From Oscillospiraceae bacterium (lineage in GTDB: Bacteria; Bacillota; Clostridia; Oscillospirales; Acutalibacteraceae), in assembly GCA_902792905.1 (NCBI GenBank), contig CADBBH010000004.1, positions 61,908-125,907 of the forward strand: DNA of 64,000 bases, in the 5' to 3' direction. Positions 22,317 through 56,250 of the stretch are shown here, piece after piece (positions within the stretch are counted from its first letter, which is position 1; each line of letters begins with the position of its first letter). The position numbers and the translations under genes are program-made. The notes under the pieces were generated by a model. The model saw only the letters and a list, made by a program, of their open reading frames with translations. It did not search any database and had not been told where the DNA came from.

Positions 22317-22327
22317 AACAATTATTA

Positions 22328-22357
22328 ATGACCCGCAGGACTTTCCTGCGGGTCATT
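22328..22357. terminator. Bidirectional terminator
   Basis: ATGACCCGCAGGA-CTT-TCCTGCGGGTCAT between convergent genes. Confidence 0.8.
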
Positions 22358-22389: not shown

Positions 22390-24771
22390 TTATACAACTG
22401 ATTTTTTCTTCTTTTTGCCGACTGAGGAAACAATTATACCCGAGACAAGCGCGCCCAGAGCAAGGCCGCCGACACCCACAAGAGCAAGCGTGCCGCCTGT
22501 GAAGTTTGAACCTGCAGTGCCTGCCGATGATGCGGCTGAGGTATCAACCTTGAAATAAACCATCACGCTCTTTGCGCTCTGATTCCAGCAGTAGAGCTTG
22601 TTGTTGAGGTTGAACGCCGCTTTCTCACCGAAGAAATGAATACCCGTTGTATAACCTTCGGGAACAGTGCTGCTGCCGACAACCGCTTTAAGCGAATCGG
22701 CAAGAATCGGGCTCATTGCCTCGTTCTTGACATAGTACAGCGCGAGCCACTGCGGGTTTACGCAGCCGTTCATATCGGCGCAGTTGCCTATATTCTTATA
22801 GTAGCTGTCGCCTTTTTTGCGGTTGGATTCAACTGCTTTGTAATATGCACTCTGATTCTTGACAACTATTTTGTCTCCCGCATCATTGGTAACGGTTATA
22901 TCCTTTTCGTCAACCATATAGTGCGGAATCGGCGTGAAGTCAACATTGTAATAAGCCTTCATATCGCGATATGAAAGATATGTTGTAACAGCAGCCAGGA
23001 CTATAACCGCAACGCCGAGACCGACTGCGAGGCCTTTGCAAACTGAGCTGTTTGCGGTTGCTGCCTGTGTTTCTAACGCGTCAATTTTATTTCCTTTGGC
23101 AATATCTTCATTGGTAAACAGGGTTTCAAGTTCACCGATTTCATCATCTGCCATACCTTTGGTAAGCGGTTTGATATCGTTTGAAAGACTGCCAGCCTGT
23201 TTGGTGCAGGAGGAAATATCATATTTCATTATGCCCAGCGAAATTGCAGAGCTTGCAAATGCAACAAATGTGGTTGAGGTTAAAACTATCATTGCGATAG
23301 TCCAGGGGCTGAACATACCGTTATCCTGATTCATTTTTGCGAGAGCGTCCGCGCGCATTGCGTCGCTTGTAAGAGCAACGCCGCCCTTTTTGTAAATGTT
23401 GCGGTCAACGCCGTCGTAAATCGAAATTTCATCGATTTCGTCACAGTCGATATCGGCATACCCCGCCTCGTCGGTCAGCGCAACAGCAAAAAGTTCTTTT
23501 AATGAAAGAAATTCAAGACCTGCGCGCTGTCCTTTTGAGAGCGAAGCAATCAGCGGATAAAGGACCGTTAAATCGGCGCTTATTTCGCTTTTTTCCTTCA
23601 TAAAGAAATCAAGCAGAGTGCCCTCTTCATATTCAACGGTGTCAAGATAATCATGTATGGCAATAAACTGCGAGTAAGTTGTTATTTCCCTGATTTGATT
23701 TCTTACGGCAATGTATTCGTTAAAGAATTCTGAGTATTCCTCTTTATTGTATTCAGGGTGAAGCTGTTCAAGCAGGAACTGACAGTGCGCTATTTCTTCG
23801 GAGGCTGCTTTTTCGTCGAACGCCTCAACTTTTGCAACATATCCGTCATATGAATCGAGACAGTCACGGAACGCATCCCACATAACAAGAAGTTTTTTCG
23901 CGTCGTCCTCATATTTTTTATCGAGGGCTTTCATCGCGTCTGTGTTTGCTCCGCCTGCCAGATCAAGCAGATCATTATAGGTTGTGCCTTCAAAGCGGTC
24001 AAGCCATGTATCTTCATTATCATCCGCCGCACGGGTAAGCAGGTTTTGTATCATAAGCGTTGCCTTGCCGTTTGACTGCGCAATGATTGTGAGAATGTCG
24101 GCGTGCTTGTTCTTTTCCTCTTCGGGCAGAGAATCGCGCACCTTGTTGTTTATTTCATAAAAAGAAGTCTTTTCCTTATCTTTGTCTGAAAGAGCGTCCC
24201 ACTCGGGCTTTGCCAGTTCATAAACCGTTTCATTCAGGAACAGTTCGCCGAGACCCGCGCCGCCGCAGTCGTCATCGGTCAGTTTGTTGAGAACATCATA
24301 AGCAAACTGCGCCCTTGCCTTGTTTTCGGGCTTGGAAGAATTGTAGTTAACACGATACTCTTTAATGGCGGCAAGAAAGCTTTCCACAAACGGAACAATC
24401 TGCTGACTCATCTGACCTTCCATCAGTTTGTCATACTCGGCAGTATCATAGCCGCCCTTCATATTCATGAGAGCAAGGTCTGTAATTGCGTCTTTACGGT
24501 CCGTTGTTGTCTTGTAGCCGAGATAGACTTTTTTGTTGCCCTTGGCGCCGATGTCGGTTGAGCCTGAGCCCTGATTGAGGTCAACGGGTTTGCCGTTATC
24601 TCCGCAGAGGATAGTAAAGCCTTCCTCTTCGGCTTTGTCGCAGTTACCTTCATAAACTTTCACTTCACTTATGTATTTGGGTGCGGAATCCGCAAATACC
24701 TGTGCCGGCAGCGTGCCTGCGATTAAAAACGCCACAATAATCGCGGTGACAATGGTTGTGATTCTTTTCAT
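22390..24771 (-). CDS. Anchored surface protein, paralog 1 (MABP-like beta-prism motifs, two internal hydrophobic segments)
   Basis: Signal peptide; YISEVKV..VDLNQG..VYLGYKTT..AITDL; internal hydrophobic pair; C-terminal TM + KKKKK. Confidence 0.75.
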   Translation of the reverse strand: MKRITTIVTAIIVAFLIAGTLPAQVFADSAPKYISEVKVYEGNCDKAEEEGFTILCGDNGKPVDLNQGSGSTDIGAKGNKKVYLGYKTTTDRKDAITDLALMNMKGGYDTAEYDKLMEGQMSQQIVPFVESFLAAIKEYRVNYNSSKPENKARAQFAYDVLNKLTDDDCGGAGLGELFLNETVYELAKPEWDALSDKDKEKTSFYEINNKVRDSLPEEEKNKHADILTIIAQSNGKATLMIQNLLTRAADDNEDTWLDRFEGTTYNDLLDLAGGANTDAMKALDKKYEDDAKKLLVMWDAFRDCLDSYDGYVAKVEAFDEKAASEEIAHCQFLLEQLHPEYNKEEYSEFFNEYIAVRNQIREITTYSQFIAIHDYLDTVEYEEGTLLDFFMKEKSEISADLTVLYPLIASLSKGQRAGLEFLSLKELFAVALTDEAGYADIDCDEIDEISIYDGVDRNIYKKGGVALTSDAMRADALAKMNQDNGMFSPWTIAMIVLTSTTFVAFASSAISLGIMKYDISSCTKQAGSLSNDIKPLTKGMADDEIGELETLFTNEDIAKGNKIDALETQAATANSSVCKGLAVGLGVAVIVLAAVTTYLSYRDMKAYYNVDFTPIPHYMVDEKDITVTNDAGDKIVVKNQSAYYKAVESNRKKGDSYYKNIGNCADMNGCVNPQWLALYYVKNEAMSPILADSLKAVVGSSTVPEGYTTGIHFFGEKAAFNLNNKLYCWNQSAKSVMVYFKVDTSAASSAGTAGSNFTGGTLALVGVGGLALGALVSGIIVSSVGKKKKKSVV

Positions 24772-24792
24772 TCGTTTTCACCTGCTTTTTTA

Positions 24793-27303
24793 TTAAACAG
24801 AGTTGTTTTTCCTTTTTCTGCCTTTGGCTGAAACGGCAATACCGGAAATAAGCGCGCCGAGAGCAAGACCGCCTGCGCCCGTAAGGGCAAGTGTGCCGCC
24901 GCTGAAGTTTGAACCTGCTGAGCTTGCCGATGAGGCAGCCGCCTTTTCAACTTTATAATATACCATAACGCTCTTTGCGCTCTGGTTCCAGCAGTAGAGC
25001 TTGTTATTCAAGTTGAAGGCGGCTTTTTCGCCGAGCATGTGAATTCCGGTGTCATAGCCCTGGGGAACTGTTGTGTCGCCGACAACAACCTTGAGCGAAG
25101 AAGCGAGAATCGGTGACAACGCTTCGTTCTTTGCCGCGTAGAGGGCCAGCCACTGGGGGTTTACGCAGCCGTTCATATCGGCGCAGGTATCGATTTTGTC
25201 ATAATAGCTGTCGCCTTTTTTGCGGTTGCTCTCAACGGCTTTGTAATAAGCGCTCTGGTTTTTTATAACTATTTTTTCCCCGTTCTCATTGGTTACGGTT
25301 ATATCCTTTTCCTCAACCATATAGTGGGGAATGGGGGTAAAATCAACATTGTAATGTGCCTTCATATCCCGGTAGGAAAGGTATGTGGTAACAACGGCGA
25401 GGGCAATCATCGCAACGGCAAAGCCGACGGACAGATATCCCGCCACATTGGTTTTGGGTGCCATTTTTTCAGCATACTCTTCCGAATAATCCTCTACCCA
25501 TTTGCCAAGATCTGAGGAACCGATTTCTCCTTTTTTCATGGATTTTGTCTTTTCTAAGAATGTTTTTTCAAAGTCGGGGTAGTTTTTCGCCAAAACAGCA
25601 AATTTGTGCCCGTTAACTTTTTCAGCAGTATCTTTAAACAGTTTGGTATATATGCCATCGGTAACTTTGTTAAGTGTATATACATCTAATTTCATGGTTG
25701 TATAAGCCGCCAGGGAAAGAAATGTTCCGAGAGCGGCAACGCCGGTAAGGGCCATCATCACAAGGGTTGATGTGCTGAACATATCGAAAAACGAGTCTTC
25801 GCTCTGCTCTGACATTCTCTTGAGAGCATCCGCGCGCAGGGCATCGCTTGTGAGGCCTACTCCGCCCTTCTTATAAATGCCGCGGTCAACATCCGCATAA
25901 ATTGAGGCCTTTTCAACCTTGCTCAGGTCTATTTCTTTATAGCCCTCGGCAGTTGTAAGCGCAACATTGAAGAGGTCAAGAAGTGAGAGAAATTCAAGAC
26001 CGGCTCTCTGGCCTTTTGAAAGGGAGGCGACAATAGGATAAAGCACGGTGATATCTTCCTCAACCTCTTCTTTTGTCATTGAGAAGAAATCCAGCATTGT
26101 GCCGTCAAGATACTCGGTTTCCTCCAGAATATCGTGAATGGCGGCATTCTGCACGCAGTTCATTAATTCGGCATTGAGAAGCTGCTGCTCGGCGTAATCA
26201 ATCAGGGTATCAGCCGCTTCTTCGGGATCTGTTTTTTCGTTCAGGTTTTCAACATTCTCATTGATCTGCTCCGCTTTTTCTTCATCAAATTTCTCAACAG
26301 TTTCCATATTCTTTTCATAATCCAGAAGCTGCTCGCGGAAAGCGTCCCACTTTTCGAGAATGTTTTTCGCGTCGTCCTCATATTTTTTATCGAGGGCTTT
26401 CATTGCGTCGGTGTTTTCTCCGCCGGCAAGATTAAGCAGATCTTTATATGTTGTGCCTTCAAAGCGCTCAAGCCAGGTATCGTCTTCGGTATCGGCGCCT
26501 CTGGTAAGCAGATTCTGCATAACGAGGGTGATTTTGCCGTTGGACTGAGCGACTATGGTGAGAATATCTGCGTGCTTGTTCTTATCTTCTTCGGAAAGGG
26601 AATCGCGCACCTTGTTGTTTACTTCATAAAAAGAAGTTTTTTCTTTATCTTTGTCGGAAAGGGAATCGCGCACCTTGTTGTTTACTTCATAAAAAGAAGT
26701 TTTTTCTTTATCTTTGTCGGAAAGGGCGTTCCACTGCGGCTTCGCCATTTCGTAAACAGTTTCGTTAAGGAACAAATCGCCGAGACCCGCTCCGGCGGTA
26801 TCATCATCGGTAAGTTTATTCAAAGCATCATGAACAAACTGCGCTCTTGCCTGATTTTCGGGATTGGAGGATTTATAATTCCGGCGGTATTCATTGATGG
26901 CGGCAAGGAAACTCTCAACAAACGGAACAATCTGCTGACTCATCTGGCCTTCCATCAGTTTGTCATACTCGGCAGTATCATAACCGCCCTTCATATTCAT
27001 GAGAGCGAGGTCGGTTATGGCATCATTTTTGTCGGTTGTGGTCTTGTAGCCGAGATATACCTTTTTATTGCCCTTCGCGCCGATTTCCTTTGAGCCGGAG
27101 CCCTGGTTGAGGTCAATCGGATTGCCTTTTTCGTCACAGAGGATTTTGAAGCCCTCAGACGCGGCTTTGTCGCAGTTGCCTTCATATACTTTAACAACGC
27201 TTATGTATTCTGGCAGGGAATCCGCGAATACCTGAGCGGGCAAGGTGCCTGCGATTGTGAGAGCAAGCACAAGGGCGATGAGAATCATTGATATTTTTTT
27301 CAT
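24793..27303 (-). CDS. Anchored surface protein, paralog 2
   Basis: Same architecture; near-identical N- and C-terminal domains to paralog 1. Confidence 0.75.
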   Translation of the reverse strand: MKKISMILIALVLALTIAGTLPAQVFADSLPEYISVVKVYEGNCDKAASEGFKILCDEKGNPIDLNQGSGSKEIGAKGNKKVYLGYKTTTDKNDAITDLALMNMKGGYDTAEYDKLMEGQMSQQIVPFVESFLAAINEYRRNYKSSNPENQARAQFVHDALNKLTDDDTAGAGLGDLFLNETVYEMAKPQWNALSDKDKEKTSFYEVNNKVRDSLSDKDKEKTSFYEVNNKVRDSLSEEDKNKHADILTIVAQSNGKITLVMQNLLTRGADTEDDTWLERFEGTTYKDLLNLAGGENTDAMKALDKKYEDDAKNILEKWDAFREQLLDYEKNMETVEKFDEEKAEQINENVENLNEKTDPEEAADTLIDYAEQQLLNAELMNCVQNAAIHDILEETEYLDGTMLDFFSMTKEEVEEDITVLYPIVASLSKGQRAGLEFLSLLDLFNVALTTAEGYKEIDLSKVEKASIYADVDRGIYKKGGVGLTSDALRADALKRMSEQSEDSFFDMFSTSTLVMMALTGVAALGTFLSLAAYTTMKLDVYTLNKVTDGIYTKLFKDTAEKVNGHKFAVLAKNYPDFEKTFLEKTKSMKKGEIGSSDLGKWVEDYSEEYAEKMAPKTNVAGYLSVGFAVAMIALAVVTTYLSYRDMKAHYNVDFTPIPHYMVEEKDITVTNENGEKIVIKNQSAYYKAVESNRKKGDSYYDKIDTCADMNGCVNPQWLALYAAKNEALSPILASSLKVVVGDTTVPQGYDTGIHMLGEKAAFNLNNKLYCWNQSAKSVMVYYKVEKAAASSASSAGSNFSGGTLALTGAGGLALGALISGIAVSAKGRKRKNNSV
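26591..26726. repeat. Perfect 63-bp in-frame tandem duplication
   Basis: Unit starts at 26591 and 26654, plus 10 bp at 26717; encodes LSDKDKEKTSFYEVNNKVRDS twice. Confidence 0.95.
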
Positions 27304-27357
27304 AATTATCTCCTTTTCTTCGGAAACAGATTTATATGGAAGATGCTTTATATGCGT

Positions 27358-29805
27358 TTAAGCCTCGGCCTTTTTGCTCTTTTTCTTATATGACGAGGAT
27401 ACGGCTAAGCCCGAAATCAGCGCGCCGATTGCGAGGCCGGCAGTGCCCGCGAGGGCAAGGTTTCCGGCTGTGAAGTTTGAGCCCGCGGAGCCTGCGGAAT
27501 TTGCGGATGAAGTGTCAAGCTTGTAATAAACCATCACGCTCTTTGCGCTCTGATTCCAGCAATAGAGCTTGTTATTGAGGTTGAACGCTGCTTTCTCACC
27601 GAAGAAATGAATGCCCGTTTCATATCCCTGAGGAACTGTTGAATCGCCTACAACAACCTTGAGCGAATTCGCGAGAATCGGGCTCATAGCCTCGTTCTTT
27701 GCCGCGTAGAGAGCGAGCCACTGCGGATTGACGCAGCCGTTCATATCGGCGCAGATGTCAATCTTATCATAGTAATCGTCGCCTTTTTTGCGGCTTGACT
27801 CAACAGCTTTGTAGTATGCGCTCTGATTCTTTATGACTATTTTTTCGTTATTCTCATTTGTTACGGTTATATCCTTTTCATCGACCATATAGTGAGGAAT
27901 CGGAGTGAAATCGACATCGTAGTAATCTTTCATTGCCTTGTAGTCGAGATAAATCAGGGTTGCCGAAACGGCTATCATCACAACCGTGAACACGGCGGCG
28001 CCCGCCCTCATATAACTGTATGTGCTTGACTGGCTTTCGAGCCTCTGCACATAAGAGGCATCGTATTTATCGAGCTGACTCTGGGCTTTATTAATCGCTT
28101 TGTTATAACTGTTGATATTCTTCTGCTGAGTTTCCGCCAACTGATTAAGACCTTTGTTCTGAAGAACAGTCAGTTTGTCCTTCATTGTGTTGACGGTTTT
28201 TGTGTTTCTCATGATATAATTCGACAGATTTGCGTAAGTCTGCTGATAGGCAGCCCTTGTTGCATCTACAGAATTCTTGACTGCCCACGCTGTAACAAAT
28301 GCTGCTGCGCCGACCAGTGTCACGCCCACGGCAACGGCGGACCAGATGTGAAGCGCATATGATTTTTCGGGAGTTTCTTCTTCAACCACCTTGCCGCGAA
28401 GCGCATCGCTTGTAAGAGCAACGCCGCCCTTTTTATAGATATCGCGGTCAACGCCGAGATATACGGAGTTTGCTTCCTGTGCTTCAAGAGTTGCCGCCTG
28501 ATAACCTTCTTCATCGGTTGAACCTATCATAACCAGGTTCTGAAGAGAAACGAATTCAAGGCCGGCTCTCTGGCCTTTTGTAAGAGAAGCCACGATGGGA
28601 TAAAGAACTGTTAAATCTTCCTCAATGTCTTCAGCGGGCTGAGTGAAGAAATCAAGCAGTGTACCGTCTGAGTAATCGATAGTTTCAAGATATTCCTTGC
28701 AGAATACATCGGCGGCGGCATTGGCAAGCTCTTCGGCAGAATACTGAATTTCAACACTTGCCTCGGCTGCTTTTTCGGCTTCCTCTTCGGTTGAGGTTTC
28801 AAAATCAAAGGCCTCAAAAGTTTCCTCCGCCCCGGAAACATCTTTTTTATTTGCTTTGTTAAGAATTTCGAGCGCCTTTTCATAGTTATCAAGATGCTCA
28901 CGGAAATCATCCCATTTTTCAAGGATTAATTTCGCGTCGTCATCATAATTTTTGGCAAGTTTTGCAATTTTGTCACTCGGACTTCCGCTGACGGAATCAA
29001 GCAAATCATCATATGTCAGGCTCTCAAAGCGGTCAATCCAGGTGTCTTCATTATCATCCGCAGCGCGGGTAAGAAGATTCTGCATCAGAAGAGTTGCGTT
29101 GCCGTTTGACTGCGCAATGATTGTGAGAATATCGGCGTGCTTGTTTTTCTCCTCTTCGGGCAGGGAATCGCGCACCTGATTGTTGACTTCGGAGATGCTT
29201 GTTTTTTCCTTTTCCGCATCCGAAAGAGCGTCATACTGCGGTTTTGCCAGTTCATAAACGGTTTTATTAAGGAACAAATCGCCGAGACCCGCGCCGCCGC
29301 AGTCGTCATCCGTAAGTTTATTGAGCATATCGTGGATATACTGCGCACGCGCTTTGTTGGCCTCATTACCTGAATTGTAATTTGCGCGGTATTCGTTTAT
29401 AGCCGCGAGGAAGGAATCAACAAACGGAGCAATCTGCTGACTCATCTGGCCTTCCATCAGTTTGTCATACTCGGCAACATCATAGCCGCCCTTCATATTC
29501 ATAAGAGCGAGGTCGGTGATTGCCGCGCTTCTGACTGTGGTGGTTTTATAGCCGAGATAAACCTTTTTGTTGCCTTTTGCGCCGATTGAGGTTGAACCTG
29601 AGCCCTGGTTTAAGTCAACGGGTTTGCCGTCATCGCCACAGAGAATTTTGAATCCCTCGGCTTCAGCGGTATCATAATTACCCTCATAGACTTTCACCGA
29701 GCTGATATACTCGGGCATTGAATCCGCAAACACCTGCGCGGGAAGGGTGCCTGCTATTGCAAGCGCAAGCACAAGAGCAATCAGAATATTTGATATATGC
29801 TTCAT
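27358..29805 (-). CDS. Anchored surface protein, paralog 3
   Basis: Same architecture; probable start MKHISNILIAL at 29805. Confidence 0.75.
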   Translation of the reverse strand: MKHISNILIALVLALAIAGTLPAQVFADSMPEYISSVKVYEGNYDTAEAEGFKILCGDDGKPVDLNQGSGSTSIGAKGNKKVYLGYKTTTVRSAAITDLALMNMKGGYDVAEYDKLMEGQMSQQIAPFVDSFLAAINEYRANYNSGNEANKARAQYIHDMLNKLTDDDCGGAGLGDLFLNKTVYELAKPQYDALSDAEKEKTSISEVNNQVRDSLPEEEKNKHADILTIIAQSNGNATLLMQNLLTRAADDNEDTWIDRFESLTYDDLLDSVSGSPSDKIAKLAKNYDDDAKLILEKWDDFREHLDNYEKALEILNKANKKDVSGAEETFEAFDFETSTEEEAEKAAEASVEIQYSAEELANAAADVFCKEYLETIDYSDGTLLDFFTQPAEDIEEDLTVLYPIVASLTKGQRAGLEFVSLQNLVMIGSTDEEGYQAATLEAQEANSVYLGVDRDIYKKGGVALTSDALRGKVVEEETPEKSYALHIWSAVAVGVTLVGAAAFVTAWAVKNSVDATRAAYQQTYANLSNYIMRNTKTVNTMKDKLTVLQNKGLNQLAETQQKNINSYNKAINKAQSQLDKYDASYVQRLESQSSTYSYMRAGAAVFTVVMIAVSATLIYLDYKAMKDYYDVDFTPIPHYMVDEKDITVTNENNEKIVIKNQSAYYKAVESSRKKGDDYYDKIDICADMNGCVNPQWLALYAAKNEAMSPILANSLKVVVGDSTVPQGYETGIHFFGEKAAFNLNNKLYCWNQSAKSVMVYYKLDTSSANSAGSAGSNFTAGNLALAGTAGLAIGALISGLAVSSSYKKKSKKAEA

Positions 29806-29853
29806 ATCATTTTCCTTCATTTCTTTAAAAAAACCATAGAGACTCATTATGCG

Positions 29854-32800
29854 TTAAGCAAATTCAAGGTTGCCGACAGTATAGGTGCTCTCGACAAAGC
29901 CGCCTGTGATTTCGCCCGAGGGCTTCACGCTGCCGTCACTGCGCTGAGCAAACATTGAAATGCGCACATCCTTACCGTGATGCGGTGTATAGCTTATCGC
30001 ATTCTCATTAAGGTTTGCCGGATTCGTATTGTTGGCTTGCATTACATATTCCCAGCGGACTGCATCCTGCGAATCGGAGGTGGCAGCTGCGGTTTCATTG
30101 TAAGGAACCCTGTCGCTCTCGGCAAAGGCAAGCTTTGTAAGATACCCTGTGAAGACTTCCTGGGGCAGACGCGTTTTTGCGTTGTGAGTTTTATTGTATT
30201 CCGCCGAATAATAGGGCGATGTGTAATACATATATATTTCGCTGCCGTACGAACCGTTGAAATCATAGTTGCCGACAGGGTGATAATAAACGCCGTCGTT
30301 TATAAGACCGTCGCTGTGATAAGGCTCGCCGCTCGTTATAAGGATATCGTAGATTATTTCTGATTCCTGAAGCTCGCGTGTTGCTTTCTTTGCTTTCGGA
30401 TTAACCGCACTCATACGATAACCGAGCAGAATGGTTTCTCCGCGGATGCCTTTATTCAGGTCTATATCAAGGCATTCAACGCAGCCCTGAGAAAGCAGAT
30501 CGCACATCGCTTCGCGCTTTGTAGCGCCGGTGCCGACATAGAATTTATTGAAGAATTCGCGGTTACCTGTATATTTGGTATGAATAAAGCAGGTGAGATC
30601 GGGATTGCCGTAAGGCACAGTGTGATCCTTGTCGGCACAGAGATTGGTTGCATAGCCCGGTATGATGGGCGTGGTATCAATCTTTATATCCTCAATCGGA
30701 AGACCGACGGAATCGCCGGTGTTTTTGGAATAATAAAGGTAATAATTCTTGCCGTCCATCACAATAGGCATCGTTGAAGAGGCGCAGGTATATTTGACAT
30801 TATTGCAGGTTATCTGATTCGGCGCAATCATATCATTCAACTGATAAAGAATAACACCCGTAATTGCATTGTTCGGGTCATCGGTTCTGGTAAGGCCGAT
30901 ATAAGCTGCAGGCTTGTTCTTCGGCGCATCGGTTTTGCCTTTGCCGTCCGATTGCCTGTTATACCAGGTATCGCTCTGATTTGAAACGGCAATGTTATAG
31001 ACAATCATTTCGTCCGAACAGCCGGACGCCGCGGCAAACATCGCGGTGCCCTCAACCATTGAATCCGCCGTATCGGAATCCTGATCGGGATTATCCTTTT
31101 TGAACTGAGCCCTTGAATAAGCGCCGACAGAAAGAGCGGATATGTATTTGGGCTTGTCGGTCACCTGACCTCTGAGATAAATATAGCAGGGGCGTGTTTC
31201 ACGCTGGAATTTGTCATCTTCATCCCAGGAGTCGGGATAGGAAAGATTGAACGCCTTCGTGGAATAGGGGTTTTTAATATCCACTACGGGTCTGAACTCG
31301 CCGGTGGCTTTGAGCTTGCTGTCGTGATATCTGCCATTGGGGTCGGGCGCAAGGGTATATGCTCCGCCCGTTTCCTTTCCGTTAAAGAAACTTATCGGAT
31401 GATCTGTGTCATAATGATAAACGCCGTTATCATAAGTACAGTTAATAGTATCTTCCGTAATGATTATATCGCTGAGCTTCAGCGGCTCTCTGCCGTTTAC
31501 GGGGCCGCAGAGATAGAGCGCGGTCGGCATGAACGGCATCTTCTTATATCCGAACGGAACGCCTTCGGCAAGCGTCTCGGTGCGGTATTTCACCATGCGC
31601 TTGACATATTCAACATCCTCTCTGTTCATAGCGCAGCCGCAGGCGTAATTCATGAAAACATTGCCGGGCATAACAAAGCGGTATATTTTATCAATCTCCC
31701 AGAACTGCTGCTGGAAATTGGTGGCGGCAATAAAGTTCTGCTGAACGCCGCCGAGCGCTTTGCTCATTGTGTAAGGCAGCGAATCGCTGTAACTGTCACC
31801 CTGATAAACCACCACATTCGTAAGCGCTCTCTTGGGATAATATGTCCAGGTATAAAGCAGCTTCATATGGAGATTTCCGATAGTGGCCTTCTTTCTGTTG
31901 CCGACCGTCCAGCACAGATCGGTCTGTGCGGTAGGCGTTTCGGTCTTTCTGTTTTGAAGCACCTTATCCCAAAGATCGCTGAAGTCAGCTTCAACATCGT
32001 CGAATGCCGTATCTCTCCAATCGGTGCCGCCTATGAATATAATACCCGAAAGGTATCTTTCTCCGCTGTTTCTCGCGTTCTCCGGCTTGAAATAGAGATA
32101 AGAACTCGGCATTTTATTGAGGTAATTATCCTTCTTCGTTGCGTAGAAGTTTATTCCCGCGCCGTCATCCCATAACTCATAATGCGTTTCAAAATTATAC
32201 GGCTGATCGTTGCCGAAATAGGAGACGGGAATCCACTCTGAATCTTTTGAACCGTATGTTTCAAGGTTGTTGGCGGTTACAAGATTATCCGCGGGAATCG
32301 GGTCGCCCGCCCTGCTGTCTCTCGTAAAGTAGAGCGCGTCACACAGCGGGATACCCTGCTTGCTGCCGGGGCCGGTATCCCAGCCGAGTACGTGTGAATA
32401 GGTGTATTCCACATCACCGTAGCGGATGGTGTTTGTCTGTGTGCTCTGACCCACATTCGGAGCGATGCGGATATCGGTTATCGCAGCTTTGGGGTCGTTT
32501 GTAAGCGAATAGCCGATGTAGGTGGCAAAATCCTGATTTTCGGAGAGGTCATGGTCAAACACATAGGTTTTGGTTTCTCTTTTAATCAGTTCGTTTCTTG
32601 CCGATTCGCCGTCGGATGCTACCGCCACCACTATATCTGCAATATAAGTGACATTATTTTTCGGCTCATCGGCATTGCCTTCATCCCCGCCGGTATTTTC
32701 ATCGGGATTATCCGGAGTTTCCGCCTGCTGTCCGTCGGAAGGAACAAAGTTTTTGATTGAAGTTTCGGTGTGATAATGCAGATAAGCGCCGTTTACTCTG

Positions 32801-34782
32801 TTTTTTTCGCAGAAAGCGTTGAAATCGCCGGGGCTGCGCTCGCCGAAATATTTAACGCTCTCATAGCCCTTCTGCACGGCGGCGTCGCCGTTGACCTGCA
32901 GGAAGATGCCGCCTTTTTCATCGGCAACAATCGGGCTGCCTACGCGCGGATCCTTGGTGATACCCATTACGACCCACTTCCACTGCTGTGAGCCGTTGAC
33001 ATCCTTTACACTGCCGGCGGCGTCTCTGACACATTCATAAAGAACATTGATTGCGCCGTTTTGGGTTTCACGGGTATCAACGATATAATCGGGCTTATCC
33101 GTCTGGAATTCCTTTTTCACGAGTTTTTTGAATTCCTGAATAAGGAAATTAACAATCAACATAGCGAGTAACACGGCGGTAAGGGCGCCCGTTATCATAG
33201 AGAAATACGGACCGATAACGGTGCTGACCCAGGAAATGACGGAAAATACGCCCATAAGCACGGAACTGATGACCGCCATCGCAACACAGGTGCCCGCCAT
33301 AAGGCCTGTTACAAATCCGCCGACCGCGGCAACAATCGCCACCACGCCGACCGCGGCGTAAACCGCGCCGAGCAGGAAACTCATCTGTGTGAATCCGGGA
33401 TAATACACTTCGTAAATATCATCCCACCAGAAGGTTGTACGGTCAATCGGATTTGAAGCGGCGGACTGTCTTGAGGATTCCGCGGTAACCGCAAAGCGGG
33501 AACGCTTTAAAAAGATATCGTCCCTGTTGTCGAAAATATAGAATGTTTCGGTATCGTCAATCTTTCCGAGCTCTTTTCTGACGCTTTCAATCATGCTGTC
33601 GATTTCATCATTATGAACATTCTCGGCAAGATTGAATATGGCGGAAATAAGACCGCCGGTATTGACTATTGATGCCTGGTTTTCGCCCATTGCGTCAATA
33701 ATCGGGTAAATCTGTTTAATATCTATATTATCCGAAGTCTGATGACCGAGTGAAAGGAACCAGTCACCGAGCTTCGTGTTTTCGTCAAAATTATATTCGT
33801 TCAGTTTCTCATAGCAGACGATATAGGTTACATCCATATCGTTTTCATCTGCGTTATCCATAGCTTCGGGGGCATCGTCGATATCGCCCTCGGTATCGAG
33901 ATTCAGATTTTCATAGTTTTCGCCCGCTCTCGCTCTGGCGTTTTCATAGAATGTGGTGAAGTCCTGAATCTGATGGAAAAGCTCTCTTGCTATATCCTGA
34001 TATTTTTTGTCGAGTTCCGCTTCCTCATCAGCGGTTATTCCCTGTTCATATCTCTGCCAGAGTGAACTGATGGGAATAAGCTTCGCCCAGTCTGTCGTAA
34101 CCTGCTGACCGCTCTCTTCATCATACTCATTGAGATACGGAGTAAGACCGATATTGATAAAACCGATAACGGCGTTGAGCGCCTGCACATTGGAACTGAC
34201 CAGCATCTTTGAGAAAAATGCCTGATCCGCTTTGCCCGCGATAATATAATCGCCGAGAAGCTCCGTGCCGTTGCTCTCTATTCTGAAGAGATTCAGCGCT
34301 TTGTAGGCATCCATCGCTCTCGGACTGCCCGCGATGTAGTTTTCGGCAAATGATTTCGCCGCATCGGCCATAGTCTGCGCCTTATCGGCGTTCTGAGACG
34401 CGATGTAGGCATTCATCTCGTTATAGTCATACTCGGTATAGCCGCTGTCCATCGCCATAAGCTTGATATCGCGGATTGCCATATCTTTGTTTGTGGTTGT
34501 TTTATAGGCAAGATACACATCTCTGCCGGTAGAGGTGCCGGGGTTTAATTCAACCTTGTCGGCGATTATATAATCCGCGCCGACTTCCTCCTGCGCGTCT
34601 TCTATGGTTTCATTCTCTCTGTTGATAACGGCAAGACGGATGTCCTCAACATAGAGAACAGGCTCGGTTGCTTTGGCAAAGAGCTGAGCAGGGGCGGTAA
34701 ATCCTATGCATACAGCAAGCGCTACGCACAAAGCACATACAAATATTCTGATGATTCTGTTATTCGTCATTGTCATTGTCAT
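29854..34782 (-). CDS. 1642-aa secreted protein, distant fourth paralog, with a long hydrophobic stretch and multiple MABP-like repeats
   Basis: Signal peptide; ELNPGT..VYLAYKTTTNKDMAIRDIKLMAMDSGY matches the paralogs; ~80-aa hydrophobic stretch; repeated DL(N/S)..Y(I/L)GY..AIT motifs; no C-terminal TM. Confidence 0.72.
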   Translation of the reverse strand: MTMTMTNNRIIRIFVCALCVALAVCIGFTAPAQLFAKATEPVLYVEDIRLAVINRENETIEDAQEEVGADYIIADKVELNPGTSTGRDVYLAYKTTTNKDMAIRDIKLMAMDSGYTEYDYNEMNAYIASQNADKAQTMADAAKSFAENYIAGSPRAMDAYKALNLFRIESNGTELLGDYIIAGKADQAFFSKMLVSSNVQALNAVIGFINIGLTPYLNEYDEESGQQVTTDWAKLIPISSLWQRYEQGITADEEAELDKKYQDIARELFHQIQDFTTFYENARARAGENYENLNLDTEGDIDDAPEAMDNADENDMDVTYIVCYEKLNEYNFDENTKLGDWFLSLGHQTSDNIDIKQIYPIIDAMGENQASIVNTGGLISAIFNLAENVHNDEIDSMIESVRKELGKIDDTETFYIFDNRDDIFLKRSRFAVTAESSRQSAASNPIDRTTFWWDDIYEVYYPGFTQMSFLLGAVYAAVGVVAIVAAVGGFVTGLMAGTCVAMAVISSVLMGVFSVISWVSTVIGPYFSMITGALTAVLLAMLIVNFLIQEFKKLVKKEFQTDKPDYIVDTRETQNGAINVLYECVRDAAGSVKDVNGSQQWKWVVMGITKDPRVGSPIVADEKGGIFLQVNGDAAVQKGYESVKYFGERSPGDFNAFCEKNRVNGAYLHYHTETSIKNFVPSDGQQAETPDNPDENTGGDEGNADEPKNNVTYIADIVVAVASDGESARNELIKRETKTYVFDHDLSENQDFATYIGYSLTNDPKAAITDIRIAPNVGQSTQTNTIRYGDVEYTYSHVLGWDTGPGSKQGIPLCDALYFTRDSRAGDPIPADNLVTANNLETYGSKDSEWIPVSYFGNDQPYNFETHYELWDDGAGINFYATKKDNYLNKMPSSYLYFKPENARNSGERYLSGIIFIGGTDWRDTAFDDVEADFSDLWDKVLQNRKTETPTAQTDLCWTVGNRKKATIGNLHMKLLYTWTYYPKRALTNVVVYQGDSYSDSLPYTMSKALGGVQQNFIAATNFQQQFWEIDKIYRFVMPGNVFMNYACGCAMNREDVEYVKRMVKYRTETLAEGVPFGYKKMPFMPTALYLCGPVNGREPLKLSDIIITEDTINCTYDNGVYHYDTDHPISFFNGKETGGAYTLAPDPNGRYHDSKLKATGEFRPVVDIKNPYSTKAFNLSYPDSWDEDDKFQRETRPCYIYLRGQVTDKPKYISALSVGAYSRAQFKKDNPDQDSDTADSMVEGTAMFAAASGCSDEMIVYNIAVSNQSDTWYNRQSDGKGKTDAPKNKPAAYIGLTRTDDPNNAITGVILYQLNDMIAPNQITCNNVKYTCASSTMPIVMDGKNYYLYYSKNTGDSVGLPIEDIKIDTTPIIPGYATNLCADKDHTVPYGNPDLTCFIHTKYTGNREFFNKFYVGTGATKREAMCDLLSQGCVECLDIDLNKGIRGETILLGYRMSAVNPKAKKATRELQESEIIYDILITSGEPYHSDGLINDGVYYHPVGNYDFNGSYGSEIYMYYTSPYYSAEYNKTHNAKTRLPQEVFTGYLTKLAFAESDRVPYNETAAATSDSQDAVRWEYVMQANNTNPANLNENAISYTPHHGKDVRISMFAQRSDGSVKPSGEITGGFVESTYTVGNLEFA

Positions 34783-37150
34783 TTACAGCTCCTTTCCTCT
34801 TTTTTGCAAAAACAGTTATCACAACCGCCAGCAGAACTCCCACGCCCGCAAGAGCTGCGGCTGCATATTTTGAGCCCTGGTTGAACAGAGATGCGGTTGC
34901 TACCATTTCTGCTTGTTCTGTGCCGGTCTTCTTGAATTTAAGCGTTCCCTTTTCGGGATGGAAGAATTTTGACTGATACTCGCTGACATTTTTAACCCCC
35001 GCAAATCCGGTACCGCCGTTGGAGGTGCTCAGCCATATTTCAGAACCTTTATATAATCCCGCGCAGTAAACATAAGCTTTTTTGCTGTCTTTTTCGAGCA
35101 CCAGGTTCTGATTGTTGCTCTTGCCTTTGTTACCTTTAATAATAAGCTTACCGCTTACGGTTATGTCGTACTTATCCTCAACATAAACGGCGCCCTTCTC
35201 TTTTGTTGAATTGCCCGTAATTGTGCCGCCGTTCAGAACAACTCCGTTGTCATTAATCTCCAGAGCGGAGCCGTTATGCTTGCTTTCGTTATTGCTGAAA
35301 ACGCAGTTTGTGAAAACTGTCGGATTTCTGTATTCGCTTTCATCATCGTCATTGACATAGACCGCGCCGCCTCTGTCATTTGATTTATTCTTTATGAAAT
35401 TACAGTTATCGGCGACAAATTCAAACTCCTTGTCGCTGCTCAGATCATCAATAAAAATTGCTCCGCCGCCGTCATTGGCGCTGTTGCTCTCAAATTTAAC
35501 ATCCGAAAGATGAACATATCCCGGCTTGCTTCGCAGATACAGGCCGCCGCCTTTATCCTCGCTCACACAGTTTTTGATTGTAACATTTTTAAAATTAACA
35601 TTGCCGGCTTTCTCAACATAAATTCCGCCGCCGTGGCAGTCATCGCTGCTGTCATTTGTCTTGCAGGAATCTATTGTGCAGTTTTTCAGAATTATATAGG
35701 CATTCTCTCCCGCCGAATAGATTCCGCCGCCGTGATAGTCGGTTACGCAGTTAAACAGCGTGCCGCCCATCATATAAAACTGACCGTATTTTTCAACAGC
35801 AATTCCGCCGCCGCAGTCCTTGCCGTTTCCGTCTGCAATGACGCCGCCCTTATGCTCCTTGTAGCCGGCAGAATTCGGGTTGGAGTCGGTGATTGTAAGT
35901 CTTGAATACTCGCCTATTCTGAAAATGCCGCCGTCTTTGCTCTTTTTGCCGTCGCGTTTAATGCAGTATCCGTTCAGGTCAACGAGTATGTTTTTCTTTG
36001 TGCCGGTATATAAGTACTGATTCGCTGTCCAGTCCGAACCAAGCGTGATTTCAACAAGCGATGCCTCGTCCGAAATGCCCCATGCGTATTTGTTATCTTT
36101 GGCATATCCCATCGCTTTGACCCACGCGTCGGCGGGTTTTTCATATTCTTCCCTTTTAACCAGCTTTCTATTTTCATAGACTTCCAGCAAAGTGTTCTTC
36201 ATTTCATTCACAAACATAACTTCGCCGTTTTCCGCAGAGGTCAGCCTGATGACTGTTTTGCTGTCGGATGATGCGAAAAAAGTCGTGGGCCTTTTACTGT
36301 TATATAACGAATAATTCTCGGTAATGACGCTGTTTGTGCCGGAAGCGTGGATGATGATTTTCTTCGTGAAGGTAAGCTCGCCGGCAATATTGATAACCTT
36401 TCCTCGCGAAATGAAAACATCGTGATCTCCGTTTTCGCTTATTACGGGAGCGCTGCACAAGCTCATTTCGGAAGCATTGTAAATACCGTTGCCGAGCCCG
36501 GTCACTTTGTTTCCGGTAACCGTGGCATTTGTATACTTCGTAACCGATTCAATGCCGGCCTTTTTAACAACCGTATTCTGCTCGATTATCAGAGAGCCCT
36601 CGCCGCCGTTATATATTCCGCCGCCGTTGCACGCTTCGTTATTCCTTATTATTCCGCCGCACAGAGTAAACGAACCGGTATTGTATATACCGCCGCCGCA
36701 GCCGTCTGCATCGCTCTGAGCCCTGTTGCCTTCGACAGTGCCGCCTTCAAAGATGAGCGTGCCGAAGTTGCAGATGCCGCCGCCGTTAACAGCCGCACCG
36801 CCTGTAATTGTGCCGGCATTATTCCCCGTAGAGTCAGTGACCGTCAGGCATGCACCGGACTCAATCCTGATAACACTGCCGTTTTCCGCACAAGCGCTGA
36901 GACCTCTGTTCAGTGTTTTCGCGTTCAGGTTGAGAATCGCGGTTACTCCTTCCGGAATAACAAGCTCTGCCGACAAGTCAATATCACCTGTCAGCTTGAT
37001 TTCACCGCCGTCATGCATTGCTTTTACAAGCGCCTCCTCTGTTTTAACAGATGTTACCTTGGCATAAACCGGGAGTACACTGTAAGGAACTGATCCGAAA
37101 ATAAATATCAGCGCAAGCAAAGCCGGAATTATTTTCTTTATTTCCCTCAT
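34760..37150 (-). CDS. Anchored right-handed beta-helix (pectin lyase-like/Pmp-type repeat) surface protein
   Basis: Signal peptide; many GGGIYN/GGAIF/FxxN repeats; C-terminal TM + KKRK. Confidence 0.8.
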   Translation of the reverse strand: MREIKKIIPALLALIFIFGSVPYSVLPVYAKVTSVKTEEALVKAMHDGGEIKLTGDIDLSAELVIPEGVTAILNLNAKTLNRGLSACAENGSVIRIESGACLTVTDSTGNNAGTITGGAAVNGGGICNFGTLIFEGGTVEGNRAQSDADGCGGGIYNTGSFTLCGGIIRNNEACNGGGIYNGGEGSLIIEQNTVVKKAGIESVTKYTNATVTGNKVTGLGNGIYNASEMSLCSAPVISENGDHDVFISRGKVINIAGELTFTKKIIIHASGTNSVITENYSLYNSKRPTTFFASSDSKTVIRLTSAENGEVMFVNEMKNTLLEVYENRKLVKREEYEKPADAWVKAMGYAKDNKYAWGISDEASLVEITLGSDWTANQYLYTGTKKNILVDLNGYCIKRDGKKSKDGGIFRIGEYSRLTITDSNPNSAGYKEHKGGVIADGNGKDCGGGIAVEKYGQFYMMGGTLFNCVTDYHGGGIYSAGENAYIILKNCTIDSCKTNDSSDDCHGGGIYVEKAGNVNFKNVTIKNCVSEDKGGGLYLRSKPGYVHLSDVKFESNSANDGGGAIFIDDLSSDKEFEFVADNCNFIKNKSNDRGGAVYVNDDDESEYRNPTVFTNCVFSNNESKHNGSALEINDNGVVLNGGTITGNSTKEKGAVYVEDKYDITVSGKLIIKGNKGKSNNQNLVLEKDSKKAYVYCAGLYKGSEIWLSTSNGGTGFAGVKNVSEYQSKFFHPEKGTLKFKKTGTEQAEMVATASLFNQGSKYAAAALAGVGVLLAVVITVFAKKRKGAVNDNDNDE

Positions 37151-37410: not shown

Positions 37411-37795
37411 CGGTTTTATTGCTTTGTTGGGTCGTATTAAACTGATTATAAATATCGGGGTAATTTAGCTGTCACCGACATCATACCGCTTGATTCCTCC
37501 GAAATCGTATTAAAAATTAAGAGGTGTGAGATTAAACTAATAATAAAAAGCACCGCAGAATCAATGAATCTGCGGCGTTTGGCGGAGATAAGGGGGATTG
37601 AACCCTTACCTCTTGAATGCCATTGGTTCTTTACGTGAACTATTTAATAATCATTGGAACCCTTATAATTATTGGATTTATGGCTTGTCAATCCACTCAA
37701 TAATCAACTGAAAAATGCAGAACAATTGCAGTAATACTGCAATTGTTTCAAACCAATTTTTTGCCCAGAAGTTCCGGCCCTGCGGGGTGATTTCT
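37411..37795. repeat. Degenerate direct repeat, copy 1 (att-like junction)
   Basis: CGGTTTTATTGCTTTGTTGGGTCGTATTAAACTGA...CATCATACCGCTTGATTC and the downstream ~210 bp match 55867-56250. Confidence 0.9.
37580..37623 (-). pseudogene. 3' half of tRNA-Ala(GGC), degenerate (att core)
   Basis: Reverse complement ATGGCATTCAAGAGGTAAGGGTTCAATCCCCCTTATCTCCGCCA; no 5' half. Confidence 0.75.
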
Positions 37796-55848: not shown

Positions 55849-55875
55849 ACCGCCCGTTAACCCGGGCGGTTTTAT
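55849..55875 (+). terminator. Terminator at the end of the tup/moa operon
   Basis: ACCGCCCG-TTAACC-CGGGCGGT followed by TTT. Confidence 0.8.
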
Positions 55876-56250
55876 TGCTTTGTTGGGTCGTATTAAACTG
55901 ATTTATAAATATCGGGGTAATTCAGCTGTCACCGACATCATACCGCTTGATTCATGCAAAATTATATTAAATATCAAACATTCTCAACAACCGTATAAAA
56001 AAAGTAAAGACCCGTCAGACTCAAGTCTGACGGGCTTTGTGGTGGAGATGAGGGGAATCGAACCCCTTACCTCTTGAATGCCATCGGCTCTTTATGTGAA
56101 CTGTTTAATAATCCTTAGAACCTTTGTAATTATTGGATTTATAGCTTGTCAATCCACTCAATAAACGACTGAAAACCGCAGAATAATTGCAGTAATACTG
56201 CAATTGATTCTGCAACATTTTTTACCCTGCAGCTCCTGCCCTGCAGGGTA
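55867..56250. repeat. Degenerate direct repeat, copy 2 (att-like junction)
   Basis: Matches 37411-37795 on both sides of the tRNA fragment. Confidence 0.9.
56040..56084 (-). pseudogene. 3' half of tRNA-Ala(GGC) (att core)
   Basis: Reverse complement ATGGCATTCAAGAGGTAAGGGGTTCGATTCCCCTCATCTCCACCA: anticodon loop GGC, T-arm and CCA present; 5' half absent. Confidence 0.85.

Follow-up and report, generated by a model that had tools for sequence, protein, structure and literature searches.

The 64,000-nt stretch of contig CADBBH010000004.1 analysed here (the window, to which all positions refer) comes from an Oscillospiraceae genome and carries a predicted multi-component surface system encoded by five long co-oriented open reading frames (ORFs) on the minus strand. 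These genes, named g5 to g1 in the order of transcription (Table 1), occupy positions 22390-37150, closely spaced as described in the initial annotation, which had been made from the letters of this DNA. g5 and g4 overlap, the remaining intergenic gaps are 6, 54 and 21 nt, a terminator-like hairpin lies 3' of g1, and g5-g4-g3-g2-g1 are predicted to form one operon. The GC content of the five-gene segment is in line with that of the remaining window. All five proteins start with a hydrophobic, signal-like segment (cleavage site read by eye).

Table 1. Features of the five-gene system and of the g1 and g4 products (residue numbers are those of the respective protein)
Feature	Description	Position	Strand
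g5	Secreted right-handed beta-helix (POMP-repeat) protein, 796 aa; C-terminal [GA]SxF..G-TM-basic tail	34760..37150	-
g4	Large subunit (1642 aa) with a split MABP, a helical body and a hydrophobic zone without loop, then more MABP-like repeats; this copy unanchored	29854..34782	-
g3	Hairpin paralog, 829 aa; probable start 29805	27358..29847	-
g2	Hairpin paralog, 836 aa	24793..27303	-
g1	Hairpin paralog, 793 aa, folded whole	22390..24771	-
Terminator-like hairpin	14-bp stem, 3' of g1, closing the predicted operon	22327..22357	.
g1 N-terminal MABP blade	Residues 32-104, DLN motif 1	24460..24678	-
g1 acidic helical body	Residues 105-485; differs between paralogs at about 311-370	23317..24459	-
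g1 hydrophobic helix H1	Residues 491-514	23230..23301	-
g1 H1-H2 loop	Residues 515-575, paralog-specific	23047..23229	-
g1 hydrophobic helix H2	Residues 576-601	22969..23046	-
g1 two C-terminal MABP blades	Residues 642-744; DMN, PxGY and NLN motifs	22540..22848	-
g1 tripartite C-terminal signal	[GA]SxF..G, TM helix, Lys cluster	22402..22515	-
g4 continuous hydrophobic zone	About 90 residues (463-552); low-confidence model with 3-4 helices	33127..33396	-
g4 C-terminal MABP-like repeat array	Residues about 710-1642 (about 930 extra residues); sequence only	29857..32655	-

The products of g1-g3 are 59-62% identical to each other, whereas BLAST identity between g4 and these three is only 22-30%. 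Profile-profile comparison nevertheless joins g4 to the g1 family (613 columns, probability 100, E 3.7e-66), so that the four homologs recognized in the initial annotation are indeed related, and both motif units quoted for them, a DLNxG-type unit near the N-terminus and a second, D(M/V)NG-type unit, are present. Besides the N-terminal segment, g1-g3 possess two internal hydrophobic helices and a C-terminal transmembrane (TM) helix with a basic tail; g5 has only the C-terminal anchor, again with a basic tail. The central hydrophobic pair that had been ascribed to all four homologs thus holds for g1-g3 but not for g4, in which a single continuous zone is found instead. Similarly, the claim that g4 is the unanchored member is correct for this copy but does not extend to its family, in which a C-terminal anchor was scored in 4 of 79 proteins. 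The conserved C-terminal tail of g4, considered as an anchor substitute, was uninformative because three anchored g4s also keep that tail. The sole match at cut-off among the five proteins is the NCBIfam POMP repeat on g5; with Pfam, all five proteins stay below the model cut-offs, and PDB sequence searches gave no significant match for the g1-family profile or for g5. Pfam searches with 59 diverse members at E <= 0.003 returned three sub-cut-off DUF matches and nothing else, toxin domains included. A separate feature of g2 is a 21-residue (63-nt) tandem duplication at about 26590-26716, which is missing from a contig of run X3.

To examine the fold, g1 was modelled with AlphaFold2 on a 144-sequence alignment (mean pLDDT 90.8, pTM 0.81), and the model was compared with known structures by Foldseek and then by an exhaustive VIA search. 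Foldseek yielded no match at E <= 0.001. The top three VIA matches, in contrast, were all MABP beta-prisms, aligned over 137-142 residues at a root mean square deviation (rmsd) of 2.5-3.1: Plu-MACPF (2qp2_A; Z 12.8, rmsd 2.8, 142 aligned), Mpf2Ba1 (8b6v_A; Z 12.8) and MVB12B (3tow_A; Z 11.3, 141 of 152 aligned), which bears out the MABP-like beta-prism proposed initially from motifs, here in the three-blade plu1415/MVB12 topology. Because these alignments run from g1 residue 30 to residues 744-749 yet cover only about 140 residues, one blade of the prism would be N-terminal and two C-terminal, and the model supports a MABP prism split by an insert of about 500 residues. Independently of the model, the g4 profile matches the Mpf2Ba1 prism by sequence (E 4e-4), and PxGY, a MABP signature (PMC2881412), is found at g1 positions 704-707 (P in 138, G in 121 and Y in 121 of the 144 members). 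The Asn of the DLN-type motifs is kept at positions 66, 668 and 723 in 140/144, 133/144 and 83/144 members, respectively, the third being the least conserved. In Mpf2Ba1, such motifs hold Mg on the prism axis (PMC10344926); given their conservation here, it is a reasonable inference by analogy that a metal ion clasps the two ends of the split protein together. The g4 protein is predicted to contain at least one further clear MABP-like module, the first of its C-terminal array, and about three weaker ones, with no catalytic motif evident. Assembly by blade complementation with the accessory beta-helix proteins was considered and rejected, as these lack a MABP blade above threshold, and the ESM Atlas returned only unnamed clusters. 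Outside the system, the same genome encodes a 1089-aa lipoprotein (C4:131972-135241, L201:5973-9242) with a helical region, a MABP-like repeat at 756-812 and a weak match to the Mpf2Ba1 prism.

The insert opens with a helical body that is net acidic in all 144 members; its charge of -0.113 per residue lies near the 5th percentile of 144 secreted-like ORFs in the genome. The homologous helical part of g4 (residues 105-575) was folded alone (pLDDT 76) and compared with 48,161 chains by VIA, of which a single one reached Z >= 5 (best Z 5.2). On this model, PaxB scored Z 3.1 (rmsd 6.3, 96 aligned) and colicin A Z 3.0, and the Foldseek match to MakA had an E of 2.1. Foldseek against PDB and viral models found nothing at E <= 0.001, viral fusogens included. 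With whole g1, no ClyA-family chain appeared among the best 50 VIA rows, a result that does not exclude the family, and the match to IpaB (Z 9.4) involved only a generic coiled coil. The assignment of the helical part to the Hbl/Nhe/YaxAB class, made in the initial annotation, is therefore not supported: the models give no ground for it, which by itself does not prove the fold to be new.

In the AlphaFold2 model, H1 and H2 sit on the arms of a single long antiparallel hairpin (helices 489-539 and 554-608). Both are rich in small residues, and their Leu/Ile/Phe share is low (0.27 and 0.32, versus 0.42 for the multipass helices of the genome). The loop between them ranges from 1 to 162 residues among the 144 members, and paralogs with 50-70% identity in the core share only about 7% in the loop. 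Among the 217 pairs with core identity above 75%, the loop is less than 30% identical in 98 and more than 60% identical in 86. In 17 close pairs, dN/dS of the loop is 0.41, compared with 0.10-0.19 in the core, and no positive selection on the loop was found (pN/pS 0.31 without two within-genome paralog pairs). The combination of low identity between paralogs and purifying selection between orthologs indicates that the loops are maintained, paralog-specific cassettes.

The family is large and its distribution patchy. A search with g1 recovered 661 homologs among 7989 scored candidates, and the profile search 1148 clusters at 50% identity with E <= 0.001 (440 with E <= 1e-30); 79 homologs of g4 and 105 of g5 were found. 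Among named genomes, the carriers are for the most part Ruminococcaceae, Eubacterium, Ruminococcus, Lachnospiraceae and other Clostridia of the rumen or herbivore gut, including the cultured Eubacterium xylanophilum ATCC 35991 (L024), and one g4 cluster contains an Atopobiaceae member. Five runs contained half or more of the sampled words; all five are metagenomes of the bovine gut, obtained in two studies, and one of them may be the source of the DNA analysed here. Full-length genes were present in 2 of 24 congeners, and the system was detected in 7 of 300 genomes of the family (three candidates scored per genome) and in 2 of 294 of the class, one of these being only a fragment; no relatives were found in viral contigs or plasmids. 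The genes recur together, as the initial annotation had anticipated: g5 lies immediately upstream of g4 and overlaps it in 26 of the 27 loci with upstream DNA present, P0153 is a natural g5-g4 fusion, and some g5 copies carry ricin-type lectin domains. The g1-type paralogs form tandem arrays of up to nine members (G680) that abut without small genes between them; in these arrays, too, no enzymatic motif or cognate immunity gene was seen, as noted earlier for the five genes. Copy number varies within the species, because g3 is missing in a related strain (run X3 contig joint 27255-29846). In a second subtype (L049-L062), g5 is shorter (about 490 aa) and two further genes without a Pfam match are present: one after g4, conserved and encoding a secreted protein of 435 aa, and one before the array, encoding an anchored MABP-only protein of 430 aa.

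In the genome to which the window belongs (2.07 Mb, 84% complete), the g5-g4 pair occurs twice and six g1-type genes are intact; there are also further pieces (C8:75276-77626, a g1-type gene in two pieces; C4:1-639; C21:6924-8702). An assembly error at a repeat is likely, since one repeated stretch marks the break in both of the contig-end fragments. Upstream of g5, a tRNA-Ala 3'-end remnant (37584-37624) is located within a repeat (37411-37745) that recurs about 18.5 kb away, at about 55867-56206, with 90-98% identity. The two copies bracket a segment bearing aldehyde oxidoreductase and molybdopterin genes, and this arrangement suggests an integration scar. No confirmed RNA run was among the matches listed; the contigs that run X20, guessed to be an RNA run and with a small share, gave on g3 and g4 were few and short and do not constitute evidence of expression.

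The C-terminal tail of motif, TM helix and Lys cluster is common to g5 and the g1 family, two unrelated protein types. In the genome of the window, the pattern matches 9 of 92 C-anchored candidates, all nine of them system members, and the motif-bearing third anchor is retained in 143 of the 144 paralogs. The tail also occurs on LRR, GLUG and other unrelated proteins, several per genome, and none of the NCBIfam CTERM models covers the tail set (the best, LPXTG, hits 9 of 40 members at E <= 0.1). Near the system, a PrsW-family gene preceded by a 220-aa multi-TM gene was found at 5 of 25 genome loci, in 5 of 14 further stretches and in the flanks of at least four metagenome loci. This neighbour protease, encoded outside the window, matches PF13367 (58.8 bits against a cut-off of 23.5) and contains the PrsW motifs EExxK, EN and two His, with E71, E72, K75, E108, N109, H136, H172 and N176 invariant in 10 of 10 sequences; it scores far under the NCBIfam PrsW equivalog cut-off. 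Within the same 300 family genomes, the partner gene of PrsW is present in 6 of 7 system carriers versus 8 of 293 others (Fisher p 2e-8, an overstated value because kin are not independent and 4 of the 6 carriers fed the profile). A class-level replicate was too sparse, the system and the pair being found in 2/294 and 4/295 genomes that share only G188, which had already been counted.

The pair is also associated with the tail beyond the system. In five system-free genomes, it adjoins unrelated surface proteins with the same tail, and the tail signal at E <= 1e-7 occurs in 11 of 300 genomes, 10 of which possess the pair; 8 of these had, however, fed the model, which leaves G595 and G709 as independent positives. 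Conversely, G599 has eight tail matches and no detected pair, and four pair-bearing genomes lack a strong tail. Loci with the pair and tail-bearing GLUG, LRR or helical proteins (tail xS[IL]F..G-TM-basic) are L085:8292-10757, L086:8020-10470, L089:8334-10761, L090:4384-9792 and L091:9300-11472; the idea that the helical protein of L090 is Vip3-like found no PDB support and was dropped. The protease gene directly precedes that of a MABP-containing lipoprotein in G178, and it directly precedes and overlaps a MABP gene at L095:9382-14352 (g4-like, no g5) and L216:5985-8996 (a MABP lipoprotein), hinting that the protease may track MABP proteins as well as the tail. Among other neighbours, comparison of the 96% identical loci L001 and L002 shows the array followed by the PrsW pair in L002 and by a 215-aa gene in L001; the latter gene sits upstream of g5 in L002. 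A His_kinase (PF06580) and response regulator pair recurs beside the system or the PrsW pair (L014:13928-16014, C8:86057-88140 of the window's own genome, L157, L163, L177, L185 and L214), as do SpoIIE-HATPase genes (L013, L051, L083 and L093), and these are possible regulators.

The tail and the PrsW pair are thus a candidate for a new CTERM-type protein-sorting system, although a dedicated sorting role of the pair is something that we would sooner doubt than assume. As in the MYXO-CTERM/MrtX and JDVT-CTERM/MrtJ systems, in which unrelated surface proteins carry a motif, a TM helix and a basic cluster and a glutamic-type protease gene lies nearby (bioRxiv 2023.06.07.544157), the tail is shared by dissimilar proteins; it differs from these in the lack of an invariant Cys, in the PrsW-family (PF13367) protease with an unnamed multi-TM partner and in the incomplete linkage. 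Given an anchor that resembles a sorting signal and the frequent presence of an adjacent PrsW-type protease, it is uncertain that the proteins stay tethered to the cell.

The same pair admits a different interpretation, namely that the system is an antibacterial polymorphic toxin set and that the PrsW pair serves not in sorting but in generic self-immunity, as a protease of the Abi/CPBP kind. The polymorphic cassettes, the apparent mosaics between paralogs and the tracking of the system by the pair in the family genomes agree with this, and PrsW has been tied to polymorphic toxins (PMC3482391) and MABP-like domains have been described on some Bacteroidales antibacterial pore-formers (bioRxiv 2025.01.06.631476). 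We nevertheless regard it as quite improbable: no loop-specific immunity genes or, by Pfam in 59 diverse members, toxin domains were found, the pair was not detected in some system-bearing genomes, and the layout of polymorphic toxins, with a variable C-terminal toxin domain and a downstream immunity gene, is not what is seen here, where the variable part is internal and the paralogs abut.

An anchor combined with a hydrophobic hairpin is also the generic layout of fusogens, and a machine for membrane fusion or exchange can be envisaged in which the tail is embedded in the membrane of the producer or of a vesicle and the hairpin penetrates an apposed one; partner specificity would reside in the variable parts, loosely as in TraA/TraB. 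The polymorphic surface stretch at 311-370 together with a fixed partner gene would suit such a role, and TraA itself is a CTERM protein cut by a glutamic-type intramembrane protease (PMC11980579). The absence of any match to a viral fusogen, the peptidoglycan wall that keeps membrane-anchored proteins of these Clostridia from other cells and the presence of several unrelated loops per genome, which ill suits a single identity tag, make this reading improbable as well. Both the fusion and the antibacterial readings fit the data less well than the two that follow.

Our tentative preference, which we would place a little short of an even chance, is that the subunits build an alpha-pore or translocon that is tethered to the cell, possibly shed from it, and directed against the membranes of non-kin, probably of eukaryotes. 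The MABP fold, the hairpin low in Leu, Ile and Phe, the variable loops, the acidic body and the patchy distribution count in its favour, and bacterial MABPs accompany pore-formers (PMC2881412). In addition, MPEG1, a TM-anchored MABP pore-former, may be cleaved off its anchor (PMC6753088). The point at issue is which membrane receives the hairpin. Because both halves of the prism are on the same side, the crossings between them must be paired, which places the loop on the opposite side; because the flanks are basic on the inside and acidic on the outside, the loop would face a cytoplasm. Sequence alone cannot tell whether this is the cytoplasm of the target or that of the producer.

If H1, H2 and the tail were three TM helices in the membrane of the producer, the proteins would be polytopic receptors, with the prism on the outer leaflet, the body acting as an extracellular adhesin or sensor, the variable loop serving as the cytoplasmic output and PrsW operating as a site-1 protease in signalling. 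We consider this main alternative somewhat less likely than a pore or translocon. Several observations favour it or weigh against a pore or translocon. Crossing parity and the positive-inside flanks fit a receptor exactly: in windows of 12 residues, the flank is net basic after H1 in 96 of 144 and before H2 in 107 of 144 members, and the outer flanks of H1 and H2 are mostly acidic (87/144 and 73/144). The hydrophobicity of H1 and H2 would allow insertion by the translocon, the summed insertion energy of H2 is below the median of the multipass helices of the genome, and the modelled hairpin is extended, as in an integral membrane protein, and not evidently buried, as in the soluble monomer of a toxin. 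A receptor would have no need to move long polar loops, and it accommodates the charge bias and the extended hairpin equally well; by comparison, it is hard to picture the unaided passage of polar loops of up to 162 residues through a target bilayer. A weak profile match to WRB/Get1, a TM-coiled coil-TM protein (E 0.17), and the histidine kinase/regulator and SpoIIE-type genes often found nearby point in the same direction. Finally, no known pore-forming fold matched the helical body in the structural searches described above, the PrsW pair was not found in the 84% complete genome of the window, in G721 or in G599, and a prospective test of the association between tail and protease failed, with a tail-bearing neighbour at 0 of 3 newly found pair loci.

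Opposing the receptor reading, no cognate cytoplasmic partner is encoded beside each loop, the loops nearly vanish in some members and in g4, and the PDB neighbours of the MABP domain are membrane-targeting or pore-forming proteins. Moreover, with the hairpin in the producer membrane, the third anchor, whose motif is shared with the unrelated g5, would be redundant, which is one reason to favour a hairpin destined for another membrane.

For an alpha-pore or translocon, the following sequence of events can be proposed, starting with the export of proteins with signal-like N-termini, whose N- and C-terminal parts are predicted to fold into one beta-prism on the same side. By analogy with Mpf2Ba1, an ion of Mg or Ca held by the three DLN-type motifs would keep the split prism closed. 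The shared C-terminal tail would retain the proteins on the cell until their probable proteolytic release, after which the predicted MABP prisms would attach to the non-kin membrane. The beta-helix protein g5, lectin-bearing in some copies, may present g4 and aid target recognition. With its many prisms and no loop, g4 looks like the nucleating subunit, and its several prisms and loopless zone would allow it to bind first and nucleate assembly, whereupon g1-type paralogs would join, their hairpins would insert, and the distinct loops would reach the cytoplasmic side of the target, acting as non-enzymatic effectors or pore tuners. More speculatively, the PrsW-type protease and its multi-TM partner might shed the pro-forms or control their quality. 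The existence of arrays without per-loop immunity genes would point to a eukaryotic rather than a kin-bacterial target, the likeliest being a gut eukaryote, such as a grazing ciliate. The most elaborate version of this proposal, a needle-less modular translocon with a metal-clasped split MABP, a new helical fold, GSxF-CTERM display, PrsW shedding, nucleation by g4 on a lectin/beta-helix partner and per-paralog helical effector loops delivered into a eukaryotic grazer, appears rather unlikely in its entirety.

Several known systems share parts of this architecture. The ClyA-family alpha-pore-forming toxins (Hbl, Nhe, YaxAB/PaxAB and MakABE) have several homologous secreted helical subunits per operon, one with a long hydrophobic zone, and the combination of several homologous secreted subunits and a hydrophobic hairpin in one predicted operon is similar here; here, however, the fold of that family is not matched, the subunits carry a beta-prism and an anchor, a long variable loop separates their hydrophobic helices, and their number ranges from 1 to 9. 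Type III translocators of the IpaB/YopB class have two hydrophobic helices, termini outside and a loop toward the target cytoplasm, whereas the proteins described here have a Sec-type signal, and no injectisome genes were seen at the loci examined. The MABP-bearing MACPF pore-formers (Plu-MACPF/Mpf1Aa1, 2QP2; Mpf2Ba1, 8B6V; and MPEG1/Perforin-2) have the same MABP beta-prism with DLN-type triad and PxGY; in MPEG1, as in the g1 family, a C-terminal TM anchor comes after the prism, and it may be cleaved (PMC6753088). The present system is distinct in its all-helical insert without the MACPF sheet, split prism, multi-gene organization, paralog arrays and beta-helix partner. Indeed, the matches to 2QP2 and 8B6V cover prism residues only (357-509 and 337-484), and there is no MACPF Pfam match. 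Clostridial wall proteins of the CLOL250_02048 type also display MABP and beta-helix repeats on the clostridial surface, but on one polypeptide with an N-terminal MABP, and a helical insert or hairpin is not mentioned in the main text of the paper (PMC2881412). By the tests run, then, the system holds a true MABP domain, is not MACPF, finds no support for membership in the ClyA family and does not have the organization of polymorphic toxins.

No description of the system was found in the literature, as judged by titles and beginnings of abstracts; most subscription journals were outside the coverage, and the online supplement of PMC2881412 may list such proteins. Judging from sequences and models, the architecture appears to be new, and the functions given above are proposals. 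This is a large family of 1148 clusters with no Pfam, NCBIfam or PDB assignment beyond the prism. Three of its traits are each unusual: the interruption of the beta-prism by a membrane-inserting module, the helical fold without a match and a polymorphism that is internal rather than terminal. The shared tail and PrsW pair add a candidate new protein-sorting system. Should the hairpin reside in the producer membrane, the proteins would still represent a new class of receptors. Ciliate grazing is a main route of bacterial protein turnover in ruminants, and if membrane attack is the true activity, the system would offer a testable mechanism for the resistance of rumen bacteria to such grazing; in the most elaborate version of the translocon proposal, rumen Clostridia would possess a weapon directed specifically against protozoa, an alpha-helical counterpart of MPEG1.

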